Assembly: GCA_014189685.1 (NCBI GenBank)
Contig: DVAB01000033.1
Span: 2,298-34,297, forward strand
DNA: 32,000 nucleotides
Direction of reading: 5' to 3'
From: Candidatus Naiadarchaeum limnaeum
GTDB taxonomy: Archaea; Undinarchaeota; Undinarchaeia; Undinarchaeales; Naiadarchaeaceae
Shown: piece by piece, positions 2,335 to 31,869 of the stretch
How the letters are laid out: each line of letters begins with the position of its first letter
Numbering within the stretch: position 1 is the first letter of the stretch
Made by a program: the position numbers and the translations under genes
Notes under the pieces: model-generated
The model's database searches: none
What the model saw: the letters and a program-made list of their open reading frames with translations, nothing else
What the model was told of the DNA's origin: nothing

Positions 2335-2365
2335 AACTCCAAAAAAAACAATTAACGATAAAAGA

Positions 2366-2399
2366 GGGGTCCAACGCAGGACCCTTCTTACTATTTTTT
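2366..2399 (+). terminator. Hairpin plus T-rich tract downstream of the S-layer gene
   Basis: GGGTCC (2367-2372) pairs with GGACCC (2379-2384) around loop AACGCA, followed by TTCTTACTATTTTTT. Oligo-T tracts terminate archaeal transcription. Confidence 0.6.
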
Positions 2400-2586: not shown

Positions 2587-3159
2587 ATGGAATACAACAA
2601 AACAAATCTAATAATTATTATTGTGTTAATCGCATTTTTAGTAGTTGGGAGCTATTTTGTCATTAAAATTAGACGTGAGCAAAACCAGGACTTGTATAGC
2701 AATATATTTTCTTGCCACGAACAGAGGGTCCCTTTTAGAGTTAACATTTCTGCGTGCAACGGCATTCCAGTATCTCCTGATGAGGGAACTCTCACTAACA
2801 CCCTCACAAGCCCATTTGTAAACGGAGTTGTCATCTTGGTAGATCCTGGTGAAACCGGCGGAACAGGAGTTTCTGCGTTTGAGATTTACAAGATTTATAA
2901 TTCGCTGCAAAACTACACTGGAAAAAGAGTCGGCATAGCATACACAAAACCCTGGCCAAACCAGACAAACATTCCGGTCATGAGCATTGATAACGCCACT
3001 TTTCAAAATCCAATAATTTTGCTCAGGCGCAATCAATCAATAACTCAGATAAGAGTTGACGGCCCAGCGATATATGTCGATGCAATTTCACAACAGGATT
3101 TAGATTCAGCATCTTGCAAAATCTCCATACTCACCATTAAAAAAGTTCTTAACTGCTGA
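2587..3159 (+). CDS. Hypothetical membrane-anchored extracellular protein
   Basis: 190-aa ORF with an N-terminal TM helix (LIIIIVLIAFLVVGSYFVI) and several N-x-S/T sequons. Its stop overlaps the trm5 ATG (TGATG). No recognisable family. Confidence 0.6.
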   Translation: MEYNKTNLIIIIVLIAFLVVGSYFVIKIRREQNQDLYSNIFSCHEQRVPFRVNISACNGIPVSPDEGTLTNTLTSPFVNGVVILVDPGETGGTGVSAFEIYKIYNSLQNYTGKRVGIAYTKPWPNQTNIPVMSIDNATFQNPIILLRRNQSITQIRVDGPAIYVDAISQQDLDSASCKISILTIKKVLNC

Positions 3160-4037
3160 TGACCCGCTTTGATATTCTCCTAAAAGGAAAGTTAACTCCA
3201 ACAGAGCGAAAAAAATTGCGCACTTCTTTAGACATTCTTGGCGAAATTGCAATAGTTGAAATTCCTCGCGAACTCTCAAAAAGATCTAGTGTAATTGGAA
3301 CAGCAATTCTAAAAGCAAACCCACAATTAAGAGCTGTTTTCAAAAAGGCCACTCCTGTGCGCGGAGAATTTAGAATTCGCGGTCTAAAGAGGATTGCAGG
3401 AAAAGGCGGGACTCTAATAACTTACAGGGAAAATACTTGCGCATTTAAGTTTGATATAGCAAAAGTTTTCTTTACCCCAAGAATGAGCTCTGAGCGTCTC
3501 AGGGTTGCAAGACAAATTAAAAATGGAGAAATTGTTGTTGATATGTTTGCAGGAGTCGGCCCGTTTGCAATCTTAATTGCAAAAACTCAGCCCCATGTTG
3601 GAATGATTCATGTTATTGACTCAAACCCAGAGGCAATAAAATACTTGCTTGAAAGCGCCTCAATGAATAAAATTTCCCATAAAATAAGCGCCTATATCGG
3701 AGATTCTCGTGCTGTAATTGAAGCTTACTTGATTGGCATCGCTGATCGAATTATAATGAATCTTCCTCTTACAGAGGAGCAGTTTTTTCCAAGCGCATTA
3801 AAAACTATCAAGAAAAGCGGCATTTTACATTTTTACACATTTGCAAAAACAGAAAAAGAAGTTCAGTCCAAAATAAGAAGATCTTTGCAAAAGCGAGCCA
3901 TATTTAAAATTCTAAAAATCAGAAAAGTTCGCCAATACGCTCCGCGAATCTGGAATTTTGTTGCAGATATAAGAATAGAGAGAAAACTTAATAAATCTCG
4001 CCAGGCCGCGAGTAGGCCAGGCCACATTCGCTCGTGA
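3159..4037 (+). CDS. trm5: tRNA (guanine37-N1)-methyltransferase Trm5 (Met-10+ family)
   Basis: [30 protein letters not shown] and the SAM motif [13 protein letters not shown] are typical of archaeal Trm5/Taw22. The last 13 codons (3996-4034) are encoded by repeat copy B. Confidence 0.85.
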
Positions 4038-4130
4038 AATAAGTGTAGCGACAATGCGAAACCTCCGGTTTCGCATGCATTCAGGAACTTCGTTCCTGAA
4101 TGAGTGGCCTAAATTTCCGCTTTTATTTTT
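3996..4130. repeat. GC-rich structured element, copy B (candidate small RNA; strand unresolved)
   Basis: The 23-mer TCTCGCCAGGCCGCGAGTAGGCC is identical to 13164-13186, with 30/33 identity over 33 nt. A 7-bp closing helix (4019-4025/4104-4110) encloses three hairpins, including perfect 10-bp and 11-bp stems. Ends in CTTTTATTTTT (4120-4130). Confidence 0.6.
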
Positions 4131-4202
4131 GCCAGCCTTGTAATGCGGGGAAAACTTAATAAATAGTGCATTTTTAGTTGTCTTATCTCTGAAGTGGGGA
4201 GT

Positions 4203-5519
4203 ATGAAAAAATCTTTACTGTTATCACTTTTAATCGCAAGTTTGCTCATAGCTAACGCCGCCTCTGCAGGAACAGTTGTAACGATAACAAAGCTTGTAAA
4301 TACGGAAGGAAATATAGGCCTTTATATAAGGAACGAATTTTACCCAAAAATGTTTACTGACTCGGCCTTAAGAAATGCTAGCACGCTAACTTTTCATCTC
4401 GATGGGGTGAGAGCACCTGTTGATGGGAGTAAAAGTGCTGAGTCAATTAGCCCAGGAGATGAGCGATTGGTTGTTCTTAGGAGCCCATGGCCAACATCAA
4501 CATTCCAAAATTTAAGCATTGTTTACACAGATGGCTCCGGGACTTCCAATTATCCTGTAGAATCAATACTTGTTTTTGCAAAGCCAGCTCTTACGGTAAA
4601 GGAAGTGATCACCGAGCCACCCCACATATTTACTAATGCCTCTGTAACAATTAGGCTTAAGATGCTTGCTGCCGGTGATAAGGACGTTTCAAGTATAAAT
4701 GTTAACGTCCTCAACCAACCAAAATATTTCCAGATAACGGATATGAGCAATCCTGCATTTCTGAAAGTTGGAGAAGAAAAGGAGTTTATCTTTAAATTTA
4801 AGCAATCAGGAGAGAAAATGCCAGAAACTATAATTTATTCAACCTCTTATTTTCCAGTTGAGCTCTCTTATAGCTATTATGGATATCCTGTAAAAACTGT
4901 CATAAATCAGACCTTTGTAGTTCTTAACAGGCTTACAACACAAGGACTTATTCCAAAGCTTGATTTTAAGCTTGATGTACCACCTGAGATTGAACGGGGA
5001 AACAGCACAAATCTAATGGTATATGCTTGGAACTCCATTTCTGGCTCAAACAAAATATGCGATGTGAATCTAACTCTAACCGCAGATGACGCAAGCATAG
5101 AAATTTCAGAAGGCACAACATTTCTTCCAGGGCCATATGAAGGTCGGGCTGACATTCCTGAGGATCCGGTCACAACTTTTTTAATAAAAACAAGCCCTTC
5201 AACCACCTCAAAACAGCACACACTCACAGCTGGCGCTTCTTACATAGATTGTGATTGGAAAATTCCAGATAAAAAAAGCAAATCAATTAATTTTGAAGTA
5301 AAATCATCTGATCAACAAGTAACTGGAACACCAGCTCCAAAAGTTGAGCCAGAAAAGCAGGTTGTAACAAAGGCTGTAACCCCTCCAAAGAAAATTGGAA
5401 GTCCTAAAACAGAAGAAAATTTCACTCTTGTTTTAATATTAGTTCTTGCAACAGTCGGGGTTATAGTTCTTTTTGGGGCAGTTTATTTCTTTGAATTAAG
5501 AAGTCGTTCTGTGTTCTAG
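4203..5519 (+). CDS. Cell-surface protein with CARDB-like beta-sandwich regions and a C-terminal TM anchor
   Basis: The track ORF starts at GTG 4194; the ATG at 4203 gives MKKSLLLSLLIASLLIANAASA, a signal peptide. Pro/Thr/Lys-rich linker (TGTPAPKVEPEKQVVTKAVTPPKK), then a TM helix and a short basic tail. Many N-x-S/T sequons. The family assignment is weak. Confidence 0.6.
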   Translation: MKKSLLLSLLIASLLIANAASAGTVVTITKLVNTEGNIGLYIRNEFYPKMFTDSALRNASTLTFHLDGVRAPVDGSKSAESISPGDERLVVLRSPWPTSTFQNLSIVYTDGSGTSNYPVESILVFAKPALTVKEVITEPPHIFTNASVTIRLKMLAAGDKDVSSINVNVLNQPKYFQITDMSNPAFLKVGEEKEFIFKFKQSGEKMPETIIYSTSYFPVELSYSYYGYPVKTVINQTFVVLNRLTTQGLIPKLDFKLDVPPEIERGNSTNLMVYAWNSISGSNKICDVNLTLTADDASIEISEGTTFLPGPYEGRADIPEDPVTTFLIKTSPSTTSKQHTLTAGASYIDCDWKIPDKKSKSINFEVKSSDQQVTGTPAPKVEPEKQVVTKAVTPPKKIGSPKTEENFTLVLILVLATVGVIVLFGAVYFFELRSRSVF

Positions 5520-6004
5520 TGCGGCACTTTTTTCAATCCCAATAAATAAGCGCCATAATTTGTTGCCAAATGTATTAGCGGAGTTATAACAAGAATTGTA
5601 ATCACAAAATCGATACGCTGCGCCTCAATTATAGAAGCTAAAATTATCGCGCCGATTAAAAAATCTATCTGGTCCCATGGAAAAAATTTCTCACCAGCGT
5701 TATATCTCAATCTTCTTTTTACAAAACTTTTTATTAAATCCCCAAAAATCGCCCCAACTGATATGAAAAAAGCCAATTCCAATTTCCCCTGAATAGTTCC
5801 AATCGCTAATGTTCCAACTCCAATCCCAAAAATTAAACCGCTGAAAGTTTTCCCATCCCCAAAAATTCTTTTTCCATCTTTCCAGTTTTTTCCAAAGTCC
5901 AAAGGAAATCCGCCGCCGAAAGCAATTGGCATTCCGTTTGCGAAATAGGCCGGGAGATAGTAATAAATTGCATTTAAAATTAAAAATACAATCTCAGTTG
6001 CCAT
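5516..6004 (-). CDS. carS: CDP-archaeol synthase (CDP-2,3-bis-O-geranylgeranyl-sn-glycerol synthase)
   Basis: 162-aa polytopic protein. YLPAYFANGMP..PLDFG..DGKRIFGDGKTFSGL..GDLIKSFVKRR matches the CarS (DUF46) signature. Its start overlaps the upstream regulator's stop (TAATG). Confidence 0.85.
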   Translation of the reverse strand: MATEIVFLILNAIYYYLPAYFANGMPIAFGGGFPLDFGKNWKDGKRIFGDGKTFSGLIFGIGVGTLAIGTIQGKLELAFFISVGAIFGDLIKSFVKRRLRYNAGEKFFPWDQIDFLIGAIILASIIEAQRIDFVITILVITPLIHLATNYGAYLLGLKKVPH

Positions 6005-6492
6005 TATCTTGGAATCTCTATTTTGCTCAGTTCAGCGACATATTTTTCTATTCTCTTTGTTTCTTTTTCCAGCCTTTCCAAACTTTTTAGTAAATATTCC
6101 TTCTCTTTACCACCTTTTGTTTTCATTATTTCATCTTTATAACGCGAAAAATTTGCCTGTACATCTGCAAATCCTTTAGAAAGCTTAAGCATTATAGCAG
6201 TTTTCAATGCTTCCACCAAATCCCCAGAAAGCTCAAGATAAAGCCTTCTATCATTTGGTTTCTTTGATTTTTTAATCAATCCGATAACCTCCAATAAATC
6301 AGTACTCAGGGAAATCATGCTTATCGAATATCGCGTTTTTTTGGCTAAAACCTCCAAACAAAGTGGTTTTCCACTCAATAAAAGCGCTGCCAGAATTTTT
6401 CCATGCACTTCTGAATACCCAAGGCTCTGCGAAATGCTTGCAAAAGTGTCTATAATCTCTGATTCAATCTCGTGAATCGATTTTTCTGCCAT
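6004..6492 (-). CDS. GbsR/MarR-type winged-helix transcriptional regulator
   Basis: N-terminal wHTH pattern (GYSEVHGKILAALLLSGKPLCLEVLAKKTRYSISMISLSTDLLEVIGLIKK) typical of COG1510-like regulators, followed by a C-terminal coiled-coil-like tail. Confidence 0.7.
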   Translation of the reverse strand: MAEKSIHEIESEIIDTFASISQSLGYSEVHGKILAALLLSGKPLCLEVLAKKTRYSISMISLSTDLLEVIGLIKKSKKPNDRRLYLELSGDLVEALKTAIMLKLSKGFADVQANFSRYKDEIMKTKGGKEKEYLLKSLERLEKETKRIEKYVAELSKIEIPR

Positions 6493-6523
6493 TAAACTCC
6501 CTACCCTCTAAAGGAGCGCAAAG

Positions 6524-6534
6524 TATTTATATAT
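6524..6534. promoter_or_regulatory. Central TATA-like box of the divergent regulator-carS / tes-like intergenic region
   Basis: TATTTATATAT is the only strong TATA-like element in the 83-nt spacer. It lies ~30 nt from the minus-strand ATG (6492) and ~42 nt from the plus-strand ATG (6576). Confidence 0.35.
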
Positions 6535-6575
6535 CAAGGTTTTAGAACTTTTAAAAAGAATTAAAAGTTGTTGGT

Positions 6576-8303
6576 ATGACTCCAGAATTACTGCTCGAGC
6601 AAAAGATAAAGGAAGTAAATGAAGTTCTTACTTACGAAAAGCTGAGTGAAATTGTCGGGCAAAAACTTTCTACTACTTATACTGCAGATCTACCTCACAA
6701 AACTCAGTCTCTCTGCCCAGAGTGCACTCGAATTTTAGATTCAATTGTTTATGCTGAAAACAACCGCGTTTACATTCTACGGAAATGCCCAGAGCATGGC
6801 GAAATTAAAGAGGTTTACTGGGAAGACCTGGAGATGTACAATAAAGCAAAGGGCTTTGGAACTAAACCAAAACAATTAGAGAATCCAAACATGCGTTTAC
6901 TTCCGAATTTAGGAGCGAACTGCCCAACCGATTGTGGACTTTGCCGCCGCCATAAGTCCCATACTGCCCTAGGAAATATTGTTGTCACAAACCGCTGCGA
7001 TTTAAGCTGCTGGTATTGCTTCTTCTATGCAAAAGAGGGCGAGCCAATCTACGAGCCCTCAATCCAGCTTTTGAAAAACATGCTTCTTGACTATAGAAAC
7101 GAGCGCCCTGTTCCGACAAATGCAATTCAAATCACCGGAGGCGAACCTTCTATAAGAGATGACATAGTTGATATCGTACGCATGACAAAATCAATTGGAT
7201 TTGACCATATTCAATTCAATACAAATGGAATAACAGTTGCTCACAAAGGCCCTGAATTTGCAAAAGCTCTCCGCGAGGCTGGAGCAAATGTTATTTACAT
7301 GAGTTTTGATGGCGTTTCCCCGCGCACAAATCCAAAGAACCACTGGGAAGTTCCATATGCTCTTGATGCTTACCGCGCTGCAAAGCAGCATGTTGTTCTT
7401 GTCCCGACTGTAATTAGAAGTGTTAACGACCACGAAGTTGGGCAGATGATTAATTTTGGGCTAAATAATTTAGACGCTGTAAAAGCAGTTAACTTCCAGC
7501 CTGTTTCTCTTGTTGGAAGAATGCCGGCTAGAGTTCGCGAAAGACAGAGAATAACAATCCCTGGAACAATCCGTGCAATTGAAGAGCAAACGAACGGAGC
7601 AATCGCAAGAGAAGACTGGTTTACAGTTCCGTGTGTTTCTAGAATTACACACTTTATCGAGGCAATAACAAAGAAAGCCCAGTACGATTTGACAATTCAT
7701 TTTGCCTGCGGAATGGGTTCATATGTTTATCTCGATAGAGAAAAAGAAAAGGTAATTCCAATTACACGATTTATAGATGTTGAAAGTTTGACTGAGTATT
7801 TGGACACATTAGCTGAGGAAATCCAAGCAGGAAAAATGACAAAGGCAGGCGCAGGCGCAAGATTACTTTTGAAACTTAAATCATTTACTGACAGCAAAAA
7901 CACTCCAAAGGACTTCAAGTTTTCAAGATTACTCTGGAATATGCTCATAAAGCACGATTACTCTGCTGTCGGCGAATTGCAGACAAAAATGATGTTCATT
8001 GGAATGATGCACTTTATGGACAAGTACAACTATGATATTGAGCGCGTAGAAAGATGTGACATTCACTATGTAATGCCAGATGGCAGAATTTTGCCTTTCT
8101 GCACATTCAATGTTATTCCAGAAATGTATCGCGATAAGGTGCAATCTCAATACTCAATGAGTGTGAAGGAATGGGGCTCAAGACAAAACAAGGCTGATTT
8201 CAAGTACGAGGACGATAAGTATCACAGAGATATTAAAAAATTAACAGAGGGCGCGCCGTATCAGAAAGCTTACAAACAGCAAACGAATTATTTCCAGGCT
8301 TAA
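6576..8303 (+). CDS. tes: Radical SAM enzyme of the COG1964 family, tetraether lipid synthase (Tes / GDGT-MAS)-like
   Basis: N-terminal Zn-ribbon/rubredoxin-like CPEC..x21..CPEHG, an auxiliary CPTDCGLCRRH, and the radical SAM motif NRCDLSCWYC, followed by ITGGEP. The ~575-aa length and domain order match the MJ0619/Tes family from memory. Confidence 0.6.
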   Translation: MTPELLLEQKIKEVNEVLTYEKLSEIVGQKLSTTYTADLPHKTQSLCPECTRILDSIVYAENNRVYILRKCPEHGEIKEVYWEDLEMYNKAKGFGTKPKQLENPNMRLLPNLGANCPTDCGLCRRHKSHTALGNIVVTNRCDLSCWYCFFYAKEGEPIYEPSIQLLKNMLLDYRNERPVPTNAIQITGGEPSIRDDIVDIVRMTKSIGFDHIQFNTNGITVAHKGPEFAKALREAGANVIYMSFDGVSPRTNPKNHWEVPYALDAYRAAKQHVVLVPTVIRSVNDHEVGQMINFGLNNLDAVKAVNFQPVSLVGRMPARVRERQRITIPGTIRAIEEQTNGAIAREDWFTVPCVSRITHFIEAITKKAQYDLTIHFACGMGSYVYLDREKEKVIPITRFIDVESLTEYLDTLAEEIQAGKMTKAGAGARLLLKLKSFTDSKNTPKDFKFSRLLWNMLIKHDYSAVGELQTKMMFIGMMHFMDKYNYDIERVERCDIHYVMPDGRILPFCTFNVIPEMYRDKVQSQYSMSVKEWGSRQNKADFKYEDDKYHRDIKKLTEGAPYQKAYKQQTNYFQA

Positions 8304-8811: not shown

Positions 8812-9063
8812 GTGGTTACTTTCGAGATAATTTTTGATGATGAATCTGAAGGGAGGAGATATATAAAGGAAGTTCTTGAGGCCCTAAAAACAAGATTTTT
8901 AAAAGATATTGGTAAAACGCTTACTTATTTTACAGAAGAGGAGCGCGGTCGGTTTGTTATTTTTGTTAGTGCCCCAGATTTACCAATGATAGGTATAGCC
9001 ATAAGCGCTCTGAAAGAAGAAGGTTATAAATATCGTGGATTTGCGCGCGTAAAAGAAACATAA
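8812..9063 (+). CDS. Hypothetical small protein (GTG start)
   Basis: 83-aa ORF. A TATA-like CATAAATATTTGTATAT lies ~20-30 nt upstream, consistent with a leaderless transcript. No family recognised. Confidence 0.5.
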   Translation: MVTFEIIFDDESEGRRYIKEVLEALKTRFLKDIGKTLTYFTEEERGRFVIFVSAPDLPMIGIAISALKEEGYKYRGFARVKET

Positions 9064-11570: not shown

Positions 11571-12126
11571 CAAATTCGGAATCGACATAAAATCTCCATA
11601 ATTTATCTGTGGCTACTCTAATTCCAATTCGCGGAGCGCGATAGATTTTCCTAATTTCTTCCTCGCTATCCAATATGACAAAAGTTCCCTGCGTTAAATC
11701 TGTTCCATTTAATTTTTTATCAATCCCAAAAGCCTGAGTTAACTTTCCCGGTCCGCTTGTTAAATTTTTTAACTCCTCTGTTTTGCGGTTTCTTTGCATA
11801 ATTTCAATTCCTTCTAAAGGCTCAACCGCGCGGATCAAAACAGCCTCTGCAATTCCCTCTGGCTGAGTAACTGCATTTAAGCAATGGTACATTCCATAAG
11901 TAAAATAAACATAAGCATGCCCTGCAGGCCCAAACATAACTTTGTTTCTTTCTGTCATACCTCGGGAAGCATGGCACGCTGGATCATTCCTCAAATATCC
12001 TTCTGTTTCAACAATTTTTCCGCTCAAAACTTTTCCATTCCTTTTATACCACAAAATTTTTCCTAAAAGCTCACGCGCAACTTTTAAAGTTGGCTGCAAA
12101 TAAAAATTTCTTTTCAGAATTTTCAT
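11557..12126 (-). CDS. mpg: DNA-3-methyladenine glycosylase (Mpg/AAG family)
   Basis: FY..PTLKVARELLGK, ETEGYLRNDPACHASRGMTERNKVMFGPAGHAYVYFTYGMYHCLN. Its 3' end overlaps the DUF371 gene by 14 nt. Confidence 0.9.
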   Translation of the reverse strand: MKILKRNFYLQPTLKVARELLGKILWYKRNGKVLSGKIVETEGYLRNDPACHASRGMTERNKVMFGPAGHAYVYFTYGMYHCLNAVTQPEGIAEAVLIRAVEPLEGIEIMQRNRKTEELKNLTSGPGKLTQAFGIDKKLNGTDLTQGTFVILDSEEEIRKIYRAPRIGIRVATDKLWRFYVDSEFVSKK

Positions 12127-13163
12127 TTCTTAATCCCTTTCGTTAGCACTTCACACCCATCTTTTGTAACTAAAATATCATCCTCAATTCTAACCCCAAA
12201 TTTTCCGCTCAAATAAATTCCGGGCTCAATGGTACAGATCATATTTTCTTTTAAAATCTCTTTGCTTTTTTCAGCAATTGCAGGCGCCTCATGAATTTCC
12301 AATCCAATCCCATGGCCCGTTGAATGAATAAATTTGTAACCTTTTTTCTTCAATTCGCCGCGCACAAAGTTATCAATCGCGTTTGCCTTAACTCCTGGTT
12401 TGACTTTTTCAATTGCTTTTTCCTGGACATTTAAAACTAAATCATAAATTTTTTCAAATTCAGTATCATTTTCTTTTAAAGAAAAAGTTCTTGTCACATC
12501 TGCATGATATCCTTTGTAAGCAGCCCCAGAATCGATAAGCAATGCCCCATTTCCATTGTTCAAAGTTGTTTTTGCATGCGGCAAAGCAGAATTGGAATCA
12601 TAAGCAACAATAGGATCAAAAGCTAATTTCGCGTTGTTTTGCGCACAAATAAATCCAATATCTGCAGAAATTTGCGTTTCATTTTTTGAAAAATCCAAAT
12701 TTTGATAAAATTTTGCAGTTATATTCGCAGCTTTTTTAATTAAAGCAATTTCTCCCTGAGTTTTTATTATTCTTAAATTTTTTATAGCGCTGCTAAAATC
12801 AGTCAACTTTAATTTAGCCTTTAATTTTTCAAAAGTATTTGCTGGCAAAAATTCCCCATTAATTCCAACTTTTTTCCCTCTTAAACTTTTTGTTATATTT
12901 TCAAGAGTCTTTTGTTTTGGCAATTCTTCTATTTGTTTTATCCAAGTTTCTTTTTCACAGCGCTCAATTTCAAATTGCGGCAAATATAATTTTTCGAAAT
13001 CCTTCCCTATTATTGCATAGGAATGCTCAACCCATTCAATTCCTGTAAAATAGTAAAGTGTGTTATCAATATGCTCAGAGCTAAAATTAATCAAAAGTAA
13101 AGCATCCAGCTTTTTCTTTTCCAATTCTTTTCTCAGATTTTCAGTTTGTTCTTTTCCAATCAT
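12123..13163 (-). CDS. M24-family Xaa-Pro aminopeptidase/dipeptidase
   Basis: Creatinase-like N-domain plus a pita-bread fold with metal ligands in order (IDSGAAYKGYHADVTRT, HSTGHGIGLEIHE, TIEPGIY, RIEDD). ATGA overlap with mpg. Confidence 0.85.
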   Translation of the reverse strand: MIGKEQTENLRKELEKKKLDALLLINFSSEHIDNTLYYFTGIEWVEHSYAIIGKDFEKLYLPQFEIERCEKETWIKQIEELPKQKTLENITKSLRGKKVGINGEFLPANTFEKLKAKLKLTDFSSAIKNLRIIKTQGEIALIKKAANITAKFYQNLDFSKNETQISADIGFICAQNNAKLAFDPIVAYDSNSALPHAKTTLNNGNGALLIDSGAAYKGYHADVTRTFSLKENDTEFEKIYDLVLNVQEKAIEKVKPGVKANAIDNFVRGELKKKGYKFIHSTGHGIGLEIHEAPAIAEKSKEILKENMICTIEPGIYLSGKFGVRIEDDILVTKDGCEVLTKGIKK

Positions 13164-13269
13164 TCTCGCCAGGCCGCGAGTAGGCCGGACTACATTAGGG
13201 GCATGCTCGCTTCTTTAAAGTTTATGAGCTCGCAGCCCCTAAATAGGCCTCTCGTCTCCTTCTATTTTT
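13164..13269. repeat. GC-rich structured element, copy C (candidate small RNA or 5' leader; strand unresolved)
   Basis: Starts at the base next to the peptidase start codon. The 23-mer is identical to copy B. A 5-bp closing helix (13182-13186/13246-13250) encloses the hairpin AGGGGC-AT-GCTC..GAGC-TCGCA-GCCCCT (13197-13240) shared with copy A. Ends in CTTCTATTTTT (13259-13269). Confidence 0.6.
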
Positions 13270-13300
13270 AATAGCATTGAATTTTGATTTTTATATAAGT

Positions 13301-13385
13301 GCGGGGGACAGGATTTGAACCTGCGTACTCGCTAGGAGACAAGACCCTGAATCTTGCGCCTTTGACCAGACTCGGCCACCCCCGC
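13301..13385 (-). tRNA. tRNA-Leu (anticodon CAG), class II, no intron, CCA not encoded
   Basis: Hand-folded cloverleaf: acceptor GCGGGGG/CCCCCGC; anticodon stem CAAGA/UCUUG with loop UUCAGGG; 15-nt variable arm; T arm GCAGG-UUCAAAU-CCUGU. Confidence 0.9.
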
Positions 13386-13422: not shown

Positions 13423-13566
13423 ATGGCCACAGACGTACTTGGAATTTGTTGCTCATGCTCAAATCCAGCAAAGCATACATGCAGTACTTGTGCTAAAATT
13501 TTTTGCGATGCTCACTTTAATAAAACAAAATTTCAGTGTGTTGAATGCGTACAAAAGCATTCCTAA
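13423..13566 (+). CDS. Small Cys/His-rich zinc-finger protein (47 aa; below the ORF-track cutoff)
   Basis: MATDVLGICCSCSNPAKHTCSTCAKIFCDAHFNKTKFQCVECVQKHS. It has cross-braced C/H pairs (CxC..HxC..CxxC..CxxH..CxxC..H). An ATTATAAAAATT box lies ~25 nt upstream, suggesting a leaderless mRNA. Confidence 0.45.
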   Translation: MATDVLGICCSCSNPAKHTCSTCAKIFCDAHFNKTKFQCVECVQKHS

Positions 13567-13568
13567 CT

Positions 13569-14096: not shown

Positions 14097-14756
14097 ATGG
14101 CAATTGTAATATTGAATTTCAAAGCATACAAACAAGCAATTGGAGATGGAGCTCTAAAACTTGCGCAAATTGCAAAAGAAGTCTCACAGCAAACAGGAGT
14201 TCGAATTATAGTTGCCCCTCAACATACTGAAATCTCTAAAACATCTCTTATAATTGAAACAATAGCTCAAAACATAGATCCTATTGATCCGGGCAGAGGA
14301 ACAGGCTATCTTTTAGCAGATTCGGTTCTTCAAAACGGCGGAATAGGATCGATATTGAATCATTCTGAGCACAAAATGGACTTCCGTGAGCTGGGAGTTG
14401 CAGTTACAAAAATGCGCGAGATTGGATTAAAAAGTTTTGTTTGTGCAAAGGATACTGAGGAAGCGCGACAAATCGCATTTCTAAATCCTGACTTTATTGC
14501 AGTTGAGCCTCCTGAATTAATTGGAACTGGAAAATCAGTCTCAACAACTCAGCCAGAGGTTGTAAAAAATTCTGTTAATGCAATTCAGCAAGTAAATAAA
14601 AAGGTTAAAATCCTTTGCGGCGCAGGAATTTCAAATGGACTCGATGCAAAAAAAGCAAAAGAACTTGGAACAGAAGGAGTTTTGCTGGCAAGTGCCTTTG
14701 TTCTTGCAAAAGATCCAAAAGCAGTTCTTTTGGAAATTGCAAATGGATTAAAATGA
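14097..14756 (+). CDS. tpiA: Triosephosphate isomerase (short archaeal type)
   Basis: 219 aa. ILNFKAY, ILNHSEH, AVEPPELIGTG and CGAGIS are archaeal TIM signatures. Confidence 0.9.
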   Translation: MAIVILNFKAYKQAIGDGALKLAQIAKEVSQQTGVRIIVAPQHTEISKTSLIIETIAQNIDPIDPGRGTGYLLADSVLQNGGIGSILNHSEHKMDFRELGVAVTKMREIGLKSFVCAKDTEEARQIAFLNPDFIAVEPPELIGTGKSVSTTQPEVVKNSVNAIQQVNKKVKILCGAGISNGLDAKKAKELGTEGVLLASAFVLAKDPKAVLLEIANGLK

Positions 14757-15982
14757 CAACTAAGGAAATTTTAACAATAGATGATTTTAATTTAAAAAAC
14801 AAAACAGTTCTTGTTCGAGTTGATTTAAACTGTCCAATTGAGCCCCAAACAGGGGAATTTCTTGATGACAGGCGCATAATTCAGCATGCAAAGACCGTAA
14901 AAGAGCTTTCAGATAAAGGCGCAAAAGTTGTTGTTCTTGCCCATCAAGGCCGCGCAGGAGAAGAATACGATTTCACAACTTTAGAAAAGCATGCTAAGAG
15001 GCTTGCAAAACACACTGGGAATGGAGTTGAATATATTCCAGATATTATTGGTCCCTCCGCAAAACAAAAAATAAAATCACTTAAGTCAGGAGATATCTTA
15101 CTTTTGGAAAATGTTCGCTTTCTTGCAGAAGAAAATTTAAATCGCCCAGCAGATGCTCAGGCAACTACGCATTTTGTTAAAAATCTTGCTCCATTAGCAG
15201 ATTATTTTGTTATGGACGCATTTGCTGCCGCACATAGGTCACAGCCTTCACTTGTTGGATTTACAGAAGTTTTGCCCTCATTGGCTGGCCGTATTTTGGA
15301 GCAGGAAATCGTAATGCTAAATAAAGCAATCCAATCGAAAAAGCGCCCTTCTGTTTTTATCTCAGGCGGAGCAAAGGTAAAAGATTCCCTAAAAGTTGTA
15401 GAGCAGTTCTTAAATAGGGGAGTTGTTGATGAGGTCTTGACATGTGGCTTAGTAGGAAATATTTTTCTTGTTGCAAAAGGGTATGAAGTACGAGGTTCAG
15501 AGTATATTGAAGAATATGATAAACTTGTGGAAAAAGCAGGAAAACTGCTAAAAAATTTTTCTGATAAAATTTTTCTCCCAGACGATGTTGCAATGGATAA
15601 GTACGGGCAGAGAATGGAAGTTTCTGTTGCTGAACTTCCTCAGCCATACAGGCTCGCGGATATTGGAACAAAAACAATTGAAAAATATAAATCCAATATT
15701 GAAAAAGCCCAAACGATTATTGCAAATGGTCCTGCAGGAATCTTTGAGGCAAAGGAATTTGAAAAAGGAACAAATGAATTAGTGCGCGCTATTTCAAATT
15801 CAAAAGCCTACTCTGTTGTTGGGGGAGGCCATATTGCAACTGCAGTAATTAATTTAAACCTTGATTCTAAAATATCACACGTGAGCACAGGGGGTGGAGC
15901 GTGCATTCTCTATCTCGCAGGCGAACCACTTCCAGCTATTGAGGCTTTAAAAAAAGCTGCGCAAAAATTTGGGAAAAAATGA
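14753..15982 (+). CDS. pgk: Phosphoglycerate kinase
   Basis: The track ORF (14615) over-extends. The true ATG at 14753 overlaps the tpiA stop (ATGA) and gives MTTKEILTIDDF..KTVLVRVDLNCP. Also has HQGR, NVRF, AAHR and GGGA motifs. 409 aa. Confidence 0.9.
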   Translation: MTTKEILTIDDFNLKNKTVLVRVDLNCPIEPQTGEFLDDRRIIQHAKTVKELSDKGAKVVVLAHQGRAGEEYDFTTLEKHAKRLAKHTGNGVEYIPDIIGPSAKQKIKSLKSGDILLLENVRFLAEENLNRPADAQATTHFVKNLAPLADYFVMDAFAAAHRSQPSLVGFTEVLPSLAGRILEQEIVMLNKAIQSKKRPSVFISGGAKVKDSLKVVEQFLNRGVVDEVLTCGLVGNIFLVAKGYEVRGSEYIEEYDKLVEKAGKLLKNFSDKIFLPDDVAMDKYGQRMEVSVAELPQPYRLADIGTKTIEKYKSNIEKAQTIIANGPAGIFEAKEFEKGTNELVRAISNSKAYSVVGGGHIATAVINLNLDSKISHVSTGGGACILYLAGEPLPAIEALKKAAQKFGKK

Positions 15983-20423: not shown

Positions 20424-22898
20424 ATGAGTGAACATGAGGGAGAATCAAAAAGGGAGAAGGATGAGCCTTTTATAATCCTTGGCGGCTCAGCGAAAGAGGG
20501 GAAAGAAGAGAAAAAAGAGTCTCATAAAAAATCAGATAGCGAGGAATATGTAATAGACCTTTCCCTAACAAAAAAACTTTTTGAGGGAAAGCACAAAAAA
20601 CTTTTCTGGAAAGTAGCAGTATATGTCCTTTTACTCATAATCCTTCTATTAGCAGCCCAATTGCGCCTTATCCCAATTGATACCTATCCAGAAGGGGCTC
20701 CACTCGCCTCAGCGGACCCATGGTGGCAGTACAGGCATGCTCGCGAGATTTACGAGCAGGGCTACCCTGGAACAGATATAAAAATTGTTGATGGGAAGCC
20801 TCTTTACTGGGATTACTTGCATGATGCCCCTACTGGGGGCCCTGCCCCAAAAGAATTTTACATTTATTTTGTTGGGTATTCCTATCGCTATATTGGGCAA
20901 TATTTTTTCCCAACTTTACTTGAATATATAAAATTTACACCAATTCTTTTTGCAGTTCTTGCAACCCTATCGATGTTCTTGCTTGTACGGGAGTTGTTCG
21001 GAGCGAAGTCAGCACTTATGGCAGCATTCCTCTTTGGGATATCTGCTCCCTTTCTTCAGAGGACTGTTGTTGGCCATGCAGATACGGATGCAATAATAGG
21101 ATTTTTCACTCTGTTTACACTTTTTCTTTTTTTCAGAGCATGGAAAAAGAAATCTTTTTTGTGGGCAGGAGCTGCCGGAATCTCTCTGGGTTTATTCGGA
21201 TTCACATGGCCAGGCGGATACACAGCAACTGCGATAATATTGGTTTTAGGGGCTTTCATCTATTATGCACTAAGACTTTTGGAGACAACACTTTTCAGCG
21301 AAGGGCCGCTTTCTGAAATAAAATGGTATTATTTAACACTTATTTTTGTGACAGTTTTTGCAGAATTGATTTTATTTATGAAAGTAGGATTAACAAGAGT
21401 TCTTTTATATGGAGGCGCATTTCTGTTTATAATCTCTGCAATAATCCCATTAGTTATATTGCTAGTAAAAGGAAGAAGTAAATTTAGAGAGCTTTTAATA
21501 GAGGAGTGGCGAGGGTTTGCAGTGCTTGCAATATTTTTAGGAATTGGTCTGGTAATGGTGGCAATAATAATCAGTCCTCTTCATGCAAACCTTTTGCGCT
21601 CATTTGAAGGATTCTTGCAATTAAGATCAATTCAACGTGCTGCACTAGTTCCAGGAGGAGATGTAATTCGAAACGTGCTATTAACAGTTGCAGAATTTAA
21701 TCCAACAGACCCAAGAATAATAACTTTCTCAACCCATATTGCAGTTTATATTCTTGCCGCGTTTTCTTTATTTGCTCTGCCAATCTGGCTTTACAAAAAT
21801 ATCAAAGGGGAAAAATCACACTTCGCAATGTACGTAGTTCCATTCATTTTATTGTGGGTGGGCTCAACATACTTTGCATCATTAAATGCAGTGCGCTTTA
21901 TTGAAAACTTTTCAATGCCAATGGTTATACTTGCTTCTGTTCTCATTGGGACAGGAGATTATTTAAGCGTCTTTAATTTGAAGAAAAGCTGGCATACAAT
22001 TTCTACAGTAGTTTTAGCAATTTTAGTTATTTTTGTGCTGGTTGGAGTTCCAAACATATCTCCTGTTAAAGGAGCAAACCAAATTGGTGCTCCCTATGTG
22101 CAAGGTGCAATTGGACTTGCTGAGCGCGCAGGAGGAGGAGAGGCACCAAACTGGCTTGACTTCTTTAAATGGGCGCGCGAAAACACGCCCAAAGGAACAA
22201 TCTTTGCATCTTGGTGGGACCCGGGGCACGCATTTACAGCTTTAGCAGAAAGGCCAACAGTTGCAGATGGTTCGCAAAATCATAACCATGTCCATGATTT
22301 AGCATTGATGTTTACTCTGAACAATAGTGGCGATGTCGATCTCGCTTTAAAGTTGATGGAAAAGTATAACATATCTTACTTTTACACAAGTTCGGACTTG
22401 ATTGGAAAATATGGTGCAATAAGTTTTCTTGGAACCGGGAAGGCGGAAAACTACGAGATGCTCGCTGTTGATAAAACCCAAGTAGCGCAATCAGGAGGCG
22501 GCGATTTATTAATTCCATATCCATTTGATATACAAACTGAAAGCGGAAAAGTGCCAACAGTCATCATACTTAATTTAAAGAATAATGGGACAGATGCAGA
22601 TGTTGTGTGGAGAATTGCAGATTCTCCTGCAAGAAAAATTGCCCGCTTTTACTTCAACACCCCAGATGGAAAACTGCAATACAGGGAAAGCAATCTTACT
22701 AATGAGACAATAGACATGATGTTCTATGTTCTTCCTGGATATGGAAATGCGTATTTCTTGCAAAAACATATTGAAACAAATCTTCTCACAAGGCTACATA
22801 TTTTTGAGGGGCGTGGATTGGAGGACTATTTTGAAAAAGTAAAGGACTTTGGAGGAGAAATAAAAGTTTTCAAAGTAAAATACGATAAGCTAAAATAA
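20424..22898 (+). CDS. aglB: Dolichyl-phosphooligosaccharide-protein glycotransferase (oligosaccharyltransferase AglB/STT3)
   Basis: 824 aa with ~13 TM helices followed by a soluble C-domain. Has ADPWW in the first loop, GHADTDA, and the WWDxG motif as SWWDPGH. Confidence 0.9.
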   Translation: MSEHEGESKREKDEPFIILGGSAKEGKEEKKESHKKSDSEEYVIDLSLTKKLFEGKHKKLFWKVAVYVLLLIILLLAAQLRLIPIDTYPEGAPLASADPWWQYRHAREIYEQGYPGTDIKIVDGKPLYWDYLHDAPTGGPAPKEFYIYFVGYSYRYIGQYFFPTLLEYIKFTPILFAVLATLSMFLLVRELFGAKSALMAAFLFGISAPFLQRTVVGHADTDAIIGFFTLFTLFLFFRAWKKKSFLWAGAAGISLGLFGFTWPGGYTATAIILVLGAFIYYALRLLETTLFSEGPLSEIKWYYLTLIFVTVFAELILFMKVGLTRVLLYGGAFLFIISAIIPLVILLVKGRSKFRELLIEEWRGFAVLAIFLGIGLVMVAIIISPLHANLLRSFEGFLQLRSIQRAALVPGGDVIRNVLLTVAEFNPTDPRIITFSTHIAVYILAAFSLFALPIWLYKNIKGEKSHFAMYVVPFILLWVGSTYFASLNAVRFIENFSMPMVILASVLIGTGDYLSVFNLKKSWHTISTVVLAILVIFVLVGVPNISPVKGANQIGAPYVQGAIGLAERAGGGEAPNWLDFFKWARENTPKGTIFASWWDPGHAFTALAERPTVADGSQNHNHVHDLALMFTLNNSGDVDLALKLMEKYNISYFYTSSDLIGKYGAISFLGTGKAENYEMLAVDKTQVAQSGGGDLLIPYPFDIQTESGKVPTVIILNLKNNGTDADVVWRIADSPARKIARFYFNTPDGKLQYRESNLTNETIDMMFYVLPGYGNAYFLQKHIETNLLTRLHIFEGRGLEDYFEKVKDFGGEIKVFKVKYDKLK

Positions 22899-31180: not shown

Positions 31181-31869
31181 TTTTCGTTTAGCTCAATGGC
31201 TTGCAATGCACTTACTTCCTTGCCCTTCTCAACTTTCTTTATTATTTTTGCAGGAACCCCAACAGCAACTACATTATCTGGAATGTCTTTTATAACAACA
31301 CTTCCCGCTCCGATAATTGAGCCACCCCCAATTTTTACATTTTGGATTATCGTACTTCCAATTCCAATAAATGCTCCATTTCCTATCTTTACCTTGCCTG
31401 CAATATTCACTCCTGGCGCAATATGTACATGATTCCCTATCATGTCTTGATGTTCAAGAATTGAACCTGAGTTTATTATAGTATCATCTCCAACCTTTGC
31501 TTCAACAGAAATTATAGCCTCCCTGCAAATTACAACCCCCTCTCCAATTTCAGCGCTATCAGCAATGCTAGCAGTCGGATGGATTGCGTTAATAAGAGTA
31601 AAGCCATCCTTTTTTAATGTCTTAAAATATTTTTCACGGATAACATTATCCCCCACAGCAACAATCGCCCCATCAATTTTCATCTTCTTTGCCAATTCAG
31701 GAAGTTTATCTAGCGGGCCGATTATAGGAACTCCATCAATATTTTCTCCTCGATGCTTAATATTGTCCACGATTCCAACCACTCCAATATTTCTATCGTG
31801 TTTTAGTATATCGAGTACAACTCTTGCTTGTCCACCGGCCCCAACAATAATTGCTTTTATTTTTTTCAT
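31177..31869 (-). CDS. NeuD/PglD-family sugar N/O-acetyltransferase (hexapeptide repeat)
   Basis: N-terminal IIVGAGGQARVVLDIL Rossmann-like domain plus a C-terminal left-handed beta-helix (IGNHVHIAPGVNIAGKVKIGNGAFIGIGSTI). Confidence 0.8.
   Translation of the reverse strand: MKKIKAIIVGAGGQARVVLDILKHDRNIGVVGIVDNIKHRGENIDGVPIIGPLDKLPELAKKMKIDGAIVAVGDNVIREKYFKTLKKDGFTLINAIHPTASIADSAEIGEGVVICREAIISVEAKVGDDTIINSGSILEHQDMIGNHVHIAPGVNIAGKVKIGNGAFIGIGSTIIQNVKIGGGSIIGAGSVVIKDIPDNVVAVGVPAKIIKKVEKGKEVSALQAIELNEK

Follow-up and report, generated by a model that had tools for sequence, protein, structure and literature searches.

A palindromic insertion at the 3' end of a TYW2/Trm5-like gene of Candidatus Naiadarchaeum limnaeum and the element family to which it belongs

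Introduction

Between a TYW2/Trm5-like methyltransferase gene and its downstream neighbour, a 32,000-nucleotide (nt) stretch of Candidatus Naiadarchaeum limnaeum carries a GC-rich block rich in hairpins, and the question raised by this locus is whether the block is a gene for a structured RNA or a piece of DNA that came from elsewhere. The stretch, hereafter called the window, spans positions 2,298 to 34,297 of contig DVAB01000033.1 (GenBank assembly GCA_014189685.1, forward strand), and all coordinates below are counted from its first letter unless another locus is named. An earlier note on this DNA had described the block, here copy B, as the founding member of a three-copy family of intergenic elements folding into a four-way cloverleaf, and had read the family either as small structured RNAs or as a miniature mobile element. 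DPANN archaea have tiny, dense genomes and their mobile DNA is little known; Candidatus N. limnaeum is a freshwater Undinarchaeota/DPANN archaeon whose taxon has been described (PMC7414124). We report that copy B is a lineage-specific insertion, and we are confident, short of certainty, that what inserted was a member of a mobile family.

Results

Copy B lies within the stop codon of a TYW2/Trm5-like gene

The insert comprises 153 GC-rich, hairpin-forming and non-coding bases (3997-4149). Its parts, together with the gene that it entered, are listed here.

3159-4037, + strand: TYW2/Trm5-like methyltransferase gene, whose last 13 codons are encoded by the element
3982-3996, no strand: left copy of the 15-nt target-site duplication GAAAACTTAATAAAT, containing the final codons of the TYW2/Trm5-like gene and the T of its native TAG stop
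3996-4018, + strand: 5' module TCTCGCCAGGCCGCGAGTAGGCC, shared without change by 4 copies, which come from 2 organisms or more
4004-4018, + strand: module hairpin GGCC-GCGAGTA-GGCC, backed by the fold and by a compensatory change; an overlapping alternative pairs CTCGC with GCGAG (3997-4012)
4019-4110, + strand: main long hairpin, with a closing stem of 7 bp (4019-4025/4104-4110), a bulged A4026 and an inner stem of 4 bp (4028-4031/4048-4051)
4053-4103, + strand: nested double-hairpin insertion, absent from the sister copy L002
4054-4076: nested hairpin 1, ATGCGAAACC-TCC-GGTTTCGCAT, a perfect 10-bp stem (4054-4063/4067-4076)
4078-4102: nested hairpin 2, CATTCAGGAAC-TTC-GTTCCTGAATG, a perfect 11-bp stem (4078-4088/4092-4102)
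4111-4130, + strand: pyrimidine-rich conserved tail with a T-run at its end (AAATTTCCGCTTTTATTTTT)
4131-4144, + strand: 3'-terminal motif GCCAGCCTTGTAAT (family consensus CYTTGWA about 5 nt past the T-run), where the full-length model match stops
4145-4149, + strand: GCGGG filler, 5 nt separating the element end from the right repeat
4150-4164, no strand: right copy of the 15-nt target-site duplication; the AG behind it completes the native stop that was displaced

The earlier note did not contain two features of the locus, a perfect 15-nt direct repeat bracketing copy B (100% identity at a spacing of 168, matched in 0 of 300 shuffles) and the 13-codon read-through of the open reading frame (ORF) at 3159-4037 into the element. 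The element proper begins at C3997, T3996 being common to the element and the left repeat, and the microhomology at the junctions amounts to 1 nt only. When positions 3997-4164 are removed in silico, the gene regains a native C-terminus of the kind present in most orthologues, …ERKLNK, followed by TAG: a terminal (K/R)(L/I/V)NK occurs in seven of the eight closest homologues, whose proteins have 277-286 residues (278-279 in six of them) against 292 in the window. The site is empty in five syntenic relatives (loci L008, L014, L018, L020 and L022), where 24-31 nt lead to the same next gene and where the L008 sequence at the insertion point reads AAGATTAATAAGTAATGCC. Copy B is base-for-base the same in five independent assemblies of this species and is therefore not an assembly artefact. 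The cut hit the TYW2/Trm5-like gene in its stop codon, and the gene now ends 13 codons inside the element. Copy B is derived and not the founder for which it had been taken.

Members of the family and their sites

The module of copy B recurs elsewhere in the window. The 23-mer TCTCGCCAGGCCGCGAGTAGGCC is found exactly at 3996-4018 and 13164-13186 (G+C 17/23), and the 33-nt block at 3996-4028 is identical to copy C at 30 of 33 positions, just as the earlier note had it; a 22-mer search with up to 3 mismatches returned 2 matches in the window against 0.00 expected. An 11-mer, also held to be shared by the three copies, is indeed present (CTTTTATTTTT at 4120 and 2515, CTTCTATTTTT at 13259), but it recurs at 31854 (+) and 9137 (-) as well and is thus weak, non-specific evidence when taken alone. 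Copies A, B and C occupy the three longest non-coding tracts (252, 156 and 135 nt in the gene model behind the coding figure) of a window that is about 95% coding. The islands are GC-rich as claimed, in a window whose GC content of 37.8% is somewhat above the third that had been attributed to the genome.

Three type-1 copies and no others (L002, L001a and B stripped of its nested hairpins) went into a covariance model, on a curated type-1 alignment, MAFFT and RNAalifold on the raw copies having misaligned the main hairpin. In the window the model recovered exactly three copies, B (3996-4144), C (13164-13282) and A (2422-2534), with nothing further below E = 0.07 when the filters were off, so that the count of three was right. 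Full-length matches were obtained for L001b (52.6 bits), C (50.5 bits, E of about 1e-12), A (21.6 bits, E of about 4e-4 to 2e-3) and the L018 copy (16.4 bits); L001b and the L018 copy lie outside the window, and the model-detectable copies number seven (A, B, C, L001a, L001b, L002 and L018). An exact scan of the Joint Genome Institute (JGI) metagenomes led to two contigs, L002 with one copy and L001 with two, L001a and L001b, the latter having the variant module ACTCGCTAGGCGGCGAGTACGCC. Two C-like copies were met by BLAST and motif scan only, in L015 (6160-6300) and in L020 (3330-3440, the same locus as A); like a 57-nt insert in L008, they were missed by the model and belong to the family by motif, architecture and position only. 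The L001a, L001b, L002 and L018 copies, and likewise those of L015 and L020, sit at unrelated loci. The L018 copy lies between a gene for a 102-residue protein and the start codon of FEN1, where the window and L008 have only 66-68 nt.

Wider searches returned little. The exact 22-mer had no match in 185,579 GTDB species genomes, a degenerate pattern with 19 bases specified gave only 4 chance matches there, in GC-rich bacteria, and two scans of viral contigs and a BLAST of plasmids and phages gave none. Rfam at gathering thresholds reported only a tRNA-Leu (13300-13385) in the whole window, so the element matches no family, the Hgc RNAs included; even at E <= 10 the segment 3960-4170 yielded just two chance matches (11.9 and 11.7 bits). 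L001 and L002 gave only a tRNA. ARAGORN likewise saw the tRNA-Leu of the window and no tRNA in the elements. The earlier exclusion of a tRNA, a C/D or H/ACA RNA, SRP RNA and RNase P accordingly holds.

Some other derivations were considered and set aside. An origin from a tRNA found no consistent signal over shuffles in local alignments to tRNA-Leu and tRNA-Cys (z of 3-5 on inconsistent strands), and a module derived from the variable arm of tRNA-Leu, with which it has the 10-mer GCGAGTACGC in common, was rejected on the same kind of alignment score. Neither H/ACA nor C/D architecture could be recognized (no boxes, pocket or K-turn geometry, no Rfam match), and ACAT as a minus-strand start codon was abandoned, since copy C reads ATG TAG.

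The two other copies of the window, with their surroundings, are these.

13164-13282, + strand: copy C, type 2, between the M24 peptidase start and tRNA-Leu
12123-13163, - strand: M24 aminopeptidase (start at 13163), an exact match to a protein ascribed to Candidatus N. limnaeum
13299-13385, - strand: tRNA-Leu(CAG), found by Rfam (13300-13385) and ARAGORN
2422-2534, + strand: copy A, an old one whose module (TGTCGCTA…) has decayed; its hairpin is AGGGGGC…GCCCCCT and its tail TTTCTACTTTTATTTTT
2391-2418, no strand: possible degenerate left target duplication of copy A
2537-2564, no strand: possible degenerate right target duplication of copy A, partner of 2391-2418

Copy C presents, in order, the same module, GGACTACATT, the hairpin AGGGGC…GCCCCT, AAATAGGCCT and the tail CTTCTATTTTT, and it is lineage-specific. 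From the peptidase ATG to the tRNA 3' end there are 135 nt in the window and only 11-12 nt in L015 and L016, the two relatives with the most similar peptidase (87% identity for that of L015). At the same site L008 has a different hairpin insert of 57 nt (CCCACATCAGAACCGAAGGTTCCGATACCTCCACTATTTTT…; L008 20327-20417), bracketed by a perfect 17-nt repeat of the tRNA-Leu 3' end, and L017 has an unrelated insert of about 140 nt. Because the site is either empty or differently filled, the short spacer at the tRNA-Leu 3' end is an insertion hot spot and not a conserved RNA locus. At the locus of copy A, L020 has a related copy and L008 and L014 have a shorter site.

Some neighbouring features deserve mention in their own right. 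The tRNA-Leu(CAG) gene is intronless in the window, and its orthologue beside the M24 peptidase holds an intron-like insert in three relatives (L008 20401-20530, L016 about 215-330, L015 about 1215-1340), the L008 gene being missed by ARAGORN. In L015, the closest relative, a PemK/MazE toxin-antitoxin pair and a 620-nt non-coding tract holding the C-like element occupy 5494-6682; the window has an 83-residue ORF (8812-9063) at that position.

Ends of the element and flanking duplications

A full-length element measures about 95-125 nt, or 148 nt in copy B with its nested hairpins, and has no coding capacity. Its anatomy is that of a defined 5' module (T)CTCGCCAGGCCGCGAGTAGGCC, a palindrome, long, GC-rich and imperfect, whose sequence varies freely, and a 3' part …CTTCYGCTTCTATTTTT-N5-CYTTGWA. 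Full-length model matches start at (T)CTCGC and finish at CYTTGWA(AT), about 14 nt beyond the T-run, which itself lies 14-19 nt from the 3' end of the element. The two ends, CTCGCC… and …CCTTGTAAT(GCGGG), do not mirror one another as inverted copies would, and no terminal inverted repeats were found between them. The description of a shared 5' module, exchangeable hairpin cargo and a shared T-run was a fair one.

Directly outside the model ends, flanking repeats are present in three or four copies (B, L001b, L002 and perhaps A). That of L001b is the 3' end of tRNA-Cys and agrees at 19 of 21 positions in the shuffle test (0/300 shuffles), or 23 of 26 when extended by eye. That of L002 agrees at 10 of 12 (TTTTTCAATCTC / TTTCTCAATTTC; 9/300 shuffles); EIEK is encoded by both of its copies, read in the frame of a convergent aIF5B-like gene whose end now falls within the tail of the element, and VMRAKA*, the stretch displaced from that gene, aligns with solved aIF5B structures at their C-termini (…IKRR, …IKRKK). 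The possible repeat of copy A (20/28 identity, 40/300 shuffles) is not significant alone, and none was found at copy C or at the L018 copy. The lengths are not fixed, since the repeat measures 12 nt in L002, 15 nt in B, 21-26 nt in L001b and possibly 28 nt in A. As the repeats are unrelated in sequence (GAAAACTTAATAAAT, TTTTTCAATCTC and the tRNA-Cys 3' end), there is no shared attachment (att) core.

The right repeat of copy B holds a TATA-like TTAATAAATAG, about 40 nt upstream of the ATG of the next gene (4204). TATA-like boxes had been noted outside both ends; the downstream one is inside the second target copy, and the upstream one (about 3966-3975) is just outside the first. The idea that B carries a flank transduced from a donor locus beside aIF5B was dropped because the 14 nt after the T-run belong to the family consensus, which leaves only GCGGG unexplained. 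A homologue search with the L002 fragment gave no match for the aIF5B locus of Naiadarchaeum, and the gene is absent from the fetched loci.

A separate footprint of the same kind was seen in L002 (984-1183), where the start of the ribosomal protein S6e gene is directly duplicated over 67 nt (78% identity) around a 66-nt insert that contains the perfect hairpin TTTTTTGC-GAA-GCAAAAAA; by sequence it is a different family.

Palindromes, covariation and the composite nature of the cloverleaf

The closing helix and the 4-bp, 10-bp and 11-bp stems described earlier for copy B are all present, and the four together form the minimum-free-energy fold on both strands, at -53.9 kcal/mol (z = -5.1) on the plus strand and -55.3 kcal/mol (z = -4.9) on the minus strand. 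The four-way cloverleaf is no designed fold. Over their full length, B and L002 are about 80-86% identical except for some 49 nt between the inner and the closing stem, and these extra nucleotides of B are two perfect hairpins; the structure is a composite in which a double hairpin of about 49 nt is nested in a simple hairpin element. A homologous double hairpin stands alone in the 5' untranslated region of the surface-layer (S-layer) gene in L014 (6048-6093) and L020; L008 lacks it, and so does L003, which is of this species. The first hairpin of this pair shares 18 of its 23 positions with that of B; the stems differ at four positions, which make up two compensatory pairs.

When the main hairpins of seven copies are aligned by hand, 93.5% of the cells are paired, double changes are seen in 8 of 11 pairs and G·U occurs in 0 of 72 paired cells. 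A model-fitted alignment gives 95.2% paired cells, double changes in 12 of 16 pairs (8 of 12 in the main helix) and G·U in 1 of 99 paired cells; pairing falls to 29-54% when the partners are slid. The near absence of G·U is not obviously due to the leaning of both alignments towards the structure, although the stem arms were chosen by eye for Watson-Crick complementarity. The module hairpin of L001b provides one clear compensatory change, its closing C-G having become G-C (GGCG…CGCC), and in the model-fitted alignment all four pairs of the module hairpin show a double change, the other changes coming from the weak L018 row. Since the covariation runs almost exclusively from one Watson-Crick pair to another, the palindromes are strand-symmetric, which suggests that they are kept at the DNA level or on both strands and not as the RNA fold of one strand. 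This would explain why the strand, on which the earlier note had not decided because of TATA-like boxes outside both ends, is not callable from structure, the helices being almost purely Watson-Crick and folding equally well on both strands. Perfect short-loop hairpins with a stem of at least 8 bp number 13 in the window against 2.75 in shuffles.

Several structured features were recorded alongside. The S-layer gene has a conserved, structured 5' leader in which GGCTCGCGAGTCGG occurs (L003 2180-2330, shortly before the window begins; L008 6780-6925; L014 5980-6170; L020 700-930), and it is followed by a GC-rich hairpin and T-run (window 2362-2389 with the T-run to 2400; L008 9304-9329; L020 3266-3285), which is conserved in relatives with compensatory changes and resembles an intrinsic terminator of bacterial style, here in an archaeon. 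In L008, a GC-rich near-palindrome of 46 nt (GCCCTCCGCCCTCGACCCTCAGTACTGACGGCTGAAGGCGGAGGGC; 6192-6237) lies between a sulfatase-like gene and an MJ0538-family gene. Finally, the motif TTCACAAATTTCAAAG, whose complement is the apical-loop sequence of type-1 elements, stands 4-8 nt upstream of several start codons in relatives (13 matches against 3.1 in shuffles; L008 6242-6257, L018 5899-5914, L015 5045-5060 and 7146-7161, L002 1187-1202).

Genes of the window and the search for a partner

The window encodes an S-layer protein, CDP-archaeol synthase, FEN1, the TYW2/Trm5-type methyltransferase, glycolytic enzymes and glycan-synthesis genes. Domain searches found no transposase, reverse transcriptase, integrase, Cas1 or HUH transposase domain among its proteins; none of the first three is encoded in the 42 kb of genome examined, and no cas1, polB or integrase gene was seen nearby. 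Neither the window nor a further 10 kb outside it yielded a parent insertion sequence (IS) with matching ends.

Two gene models call for comment. The listed TTG-start ORF of phosphoglycerate kinase (14615-15982) overlaps the triosephosphate isomerase gene (14097-14756) by 142 nt, and its true start is probably further downstream, as its Pfam match starts at residue 55. A small Cys-rich ORF (MATDVLGICCSCSNPAKHTCSTCAKIFCDAHF…; 13425-13568, + strand), below the 50-residue cut-off for ORFs and kept in L008 (about 20657-20800) and L015, probably encodes a zinc-ribbon protein.

Discussion

The fact that copy B disrupts a stop codon, is bracketed by a target duplication, is missing from five otherwise syntenic sites and has relatives at non-homologous loci bears out the mobile half of the earlier reading and not the half that made it a small structured RNA. 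Stated in full at the DNA level, and here our confidence is reasonable rather than firm, the copies constitute a non-autonomous, mobile family of palindromic elements, devoid of terminal inverted repeats and found in the Naiadarchaeales (Undinarchaeota). Such an element would be copied into AT-rich DNA at gene boundaries, where a trans-acting enzyme would nick the target with a stagger of variable distance and gap repair would duplicate 12 to about 26 nt. In a genome that is 95% coding, survivors might be seen at gene boundaries because only there would the duplication preserve the genes; copy B, for instance, may have been tolerated as its right repeat keeps the TATA-like TTAATAAATAG ahead of the next gene. 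After insertion the palindromes may gain further perfect short-loop hairpins, of which the double hairpin of B would be an example. The T-run is probably a transcription stop on the plus strand. It lies on the sense strand after TYW2 in copy B and is antisense to the tRNA and the downstream gene at all three sites downstream of a tRNA (C, L001b and the small insert of L008), an arrangement that would fit selection against a terminator between co-transcribed genes.

Several observations speak against a mobile family of this kind. Both covariation alignments, whether built by hand or fitted to the model, are biased towards pairing, and an invariant 23-nt module beside variable stems could also mean a functional RNA or a protein-binding motif. 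Only two of the target duplications are individually significant, with none at copy C or the L018 copy, and duplications so long and so variable fit no single characterised prokaryotic transposase. The model-detectable copies are only seven, in about 140 kb searched, and the absence of any copy from the 185,579 GTDB genomes, set beside two metagenome contigs only, means either a narrow family or too strict a pattern. Lastly, no autonomous partner or candidate enzyme was found in the sequence examined.

How else could the locus be explained? Regulatory small RNAs, paralogues at several loci transcribed from the plus strand and terminated at the T-run, would account for GC-rich islands in an AT-rich genome, for the significant folding (z of about -5 for B), for the strong compensatory changes and for the invariance of the module and the T-run. 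We consider such genes improbable: the loci are not conserved among relatives (site B being empty in five of them and site C in two), which excludes a conserved small RNA gene; B destroys a stop codon and has a target duplication around it; C is wedged, in antisense orientation, between a tRNA and the start of a peptidase gene, which leaves a promoter no place outside coding DNA; Rfam has no match; and the helices are strand-symmetric and poor in G·U, with hairpin content that is freely exchangeable. A further position, that no dedicated element exists and that hairpin-prone DNA is copied by template switching or microhomology-mediated break repair, with duplication of a variable stretch of target, strikes us as the least credible of all. 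It would explain the varying duplication lengths, the unrelated 66-nt hairpin insert within its 67-nt repeat in L002, the single nucleotide of microhomology and the 5-nt filler GCGGG at B, and perfect palindromes with 3-nt loops do look like fold-back copying (13 against 2.75 expected); yet independent insertions from at least two organisms have their 5' and 3' ends in common, the 23-nt module is invariant across copies, and random templated insertions should not yield a family with defined ends.

Other alternatives accept movement and concern its means. In retroposition resembling that of short interspersed nuclear elements (SINEs), a master copy would yield a transcript that reaches from the start of the module to a point just beyond the T-run, and this RNA would be reverse-transcribed at a nicked target (target-primed). 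With SINEs the elements have in common defined ends without inverted repeats, variable duplications (12-26 nt), AT-rich targets and a conserved, terminator-like T-run 14-19 nt from the 3' end, and relatives such as the L008 insert of 57 nt with its perfect 17-nt repeat are possibly 5'-truncated. To our knowledge, SINE-like elements have not been described in Archaea. We regard this route as unlikely, since the sequence examined showed no reverse transcriptase, neither a priming tail, A-rich or other, nor the logic of an internal promoter can be discerned, the helices are nearly free of G·U, contrary to selection on a single RNA strand, two master genes would be required for B and C, which share a genome, and the elements begin with a pyrimidine, which is unusual as an archaeal transcription start. 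The elements might also be miniature derivatives or remnants of larger integrative elements moved by a Cas1-type casposase or a tyrosine recombinase, the repeats then being casposase-style duplications or att sites; this too we consider improbable. Casposons are elements of several kb that strike the 3' ends of their target genes. Their target duplications measure 14-35 nt, and tRNA genes or a protein-coding gene serve as targets (PMC4779613). The lengths found here fall in a like range, with 15 nt at the 3' end of TYW2 in copy B and 21-26 nt at that of tRNA-Cys, and the two tRNA-adjacent repeats (17 nt in L008, about 26 nt in L001b) run from the T-arm to the tRNA 3' end, the classic att position. 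Unlike casposons, with their inverted repeats, cas1 and polB, the present elements have about 100 nt, no terminal inverted repeats and no such gene nearby; moreover, the repeats differ in sequence between sites without an att core, their length varies among sites, though these are in different genomes, and elements complete at about 100 nt in several genomes do not resemble random deletion remnants.

The mobile palindromic family that we favour leaves footprints, without inverted ends and with long target duplications of variable length, that fit no described prokaryotic transposon well, and it is instructive to set it against known systems. It resembles prokaryotic miniature transposable elements with inverted repeats (MITEs) in its size of about 100-150 nt, its non-coding, multi-copy, structured and mostly intergenic nature, its target duplications, its polymorphism between relatives and its presumed movement in trans; it differs in lacking terminal inverted repeats and in duplications of 12-26 nt in place of a short length fixed by the partner IS. 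Repetitive extragenic palindromic (REP) elements bear a conserved 5' GTAG beside the palindrome, and REPs flank the gene of their IS200/IS605-like transposase, RAYT. With these bacterial elements and their mosaics (bacterial interspersed mosaic elements, BIMEs), the family shares GC-rich imperfect palindromes at gene ends, a mosaic of modules and strand-symmetric helices, and its module holds GTAGGCC, which recalls that GTAG (GTAG in four copies, GTAC in L001b). REPs, however, leave no target duplication, the host here is an archaeon, and neither RAYT nor TnpA was seen in the window. The GC clusters and double-hairpin elements of fungal mitochondria offer a further likeness, namely GC-rich hairpins that spread in compact AT-rich genomes, with nested insertions and adjacent pairs of perfect hairpins, and in neither case is the mobilising activity known; they belong to an organelle of another domain, show no sequence relation and differ in flanking duplications. 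Palindromic elements of Rickettsia insert inside protein-coding genes and add residues to them, a tolerance that copy B recalls, but here only the extreme 3' ends of genes are struck and most copies are intergenic.

It remains a long shot, albeit one with consequences, that the mechanism is new for small prokaryotic elements, be it the first SINE-like retroposon of Archaea or the capture of short DNA without inverted repeats by an integrase of Cas1/casposase type that leaves long target duplications. If true, such a capture would represent a living intermediate between casposition and spacer acquisition, and the new mechanism would act in a DPANN genome of about 0.7 Mb that has no visible transposase. 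More generally, defined ends without inverted repeats, together with duplications that vary from 12 to 26 nt, point to an integration chemistry outside the current IS and MITE classifications, and the module and tail, should they be met at the ends of larger elements, give a concrete handle towards the enzyme. For annotation, it follows that GC-rich islands in AT-rich archaeal genomes are not small RNA genes by default and that such elements produce artificial C-terminal extensions in predicted proteins. In these dense genomes, small hairpin elements remodel intergenic spacers that measure 10-30 nt and even the final codons of essential genes, those of a TYW2/Trm5-type tRNA methyltransferase and of aIF5B.

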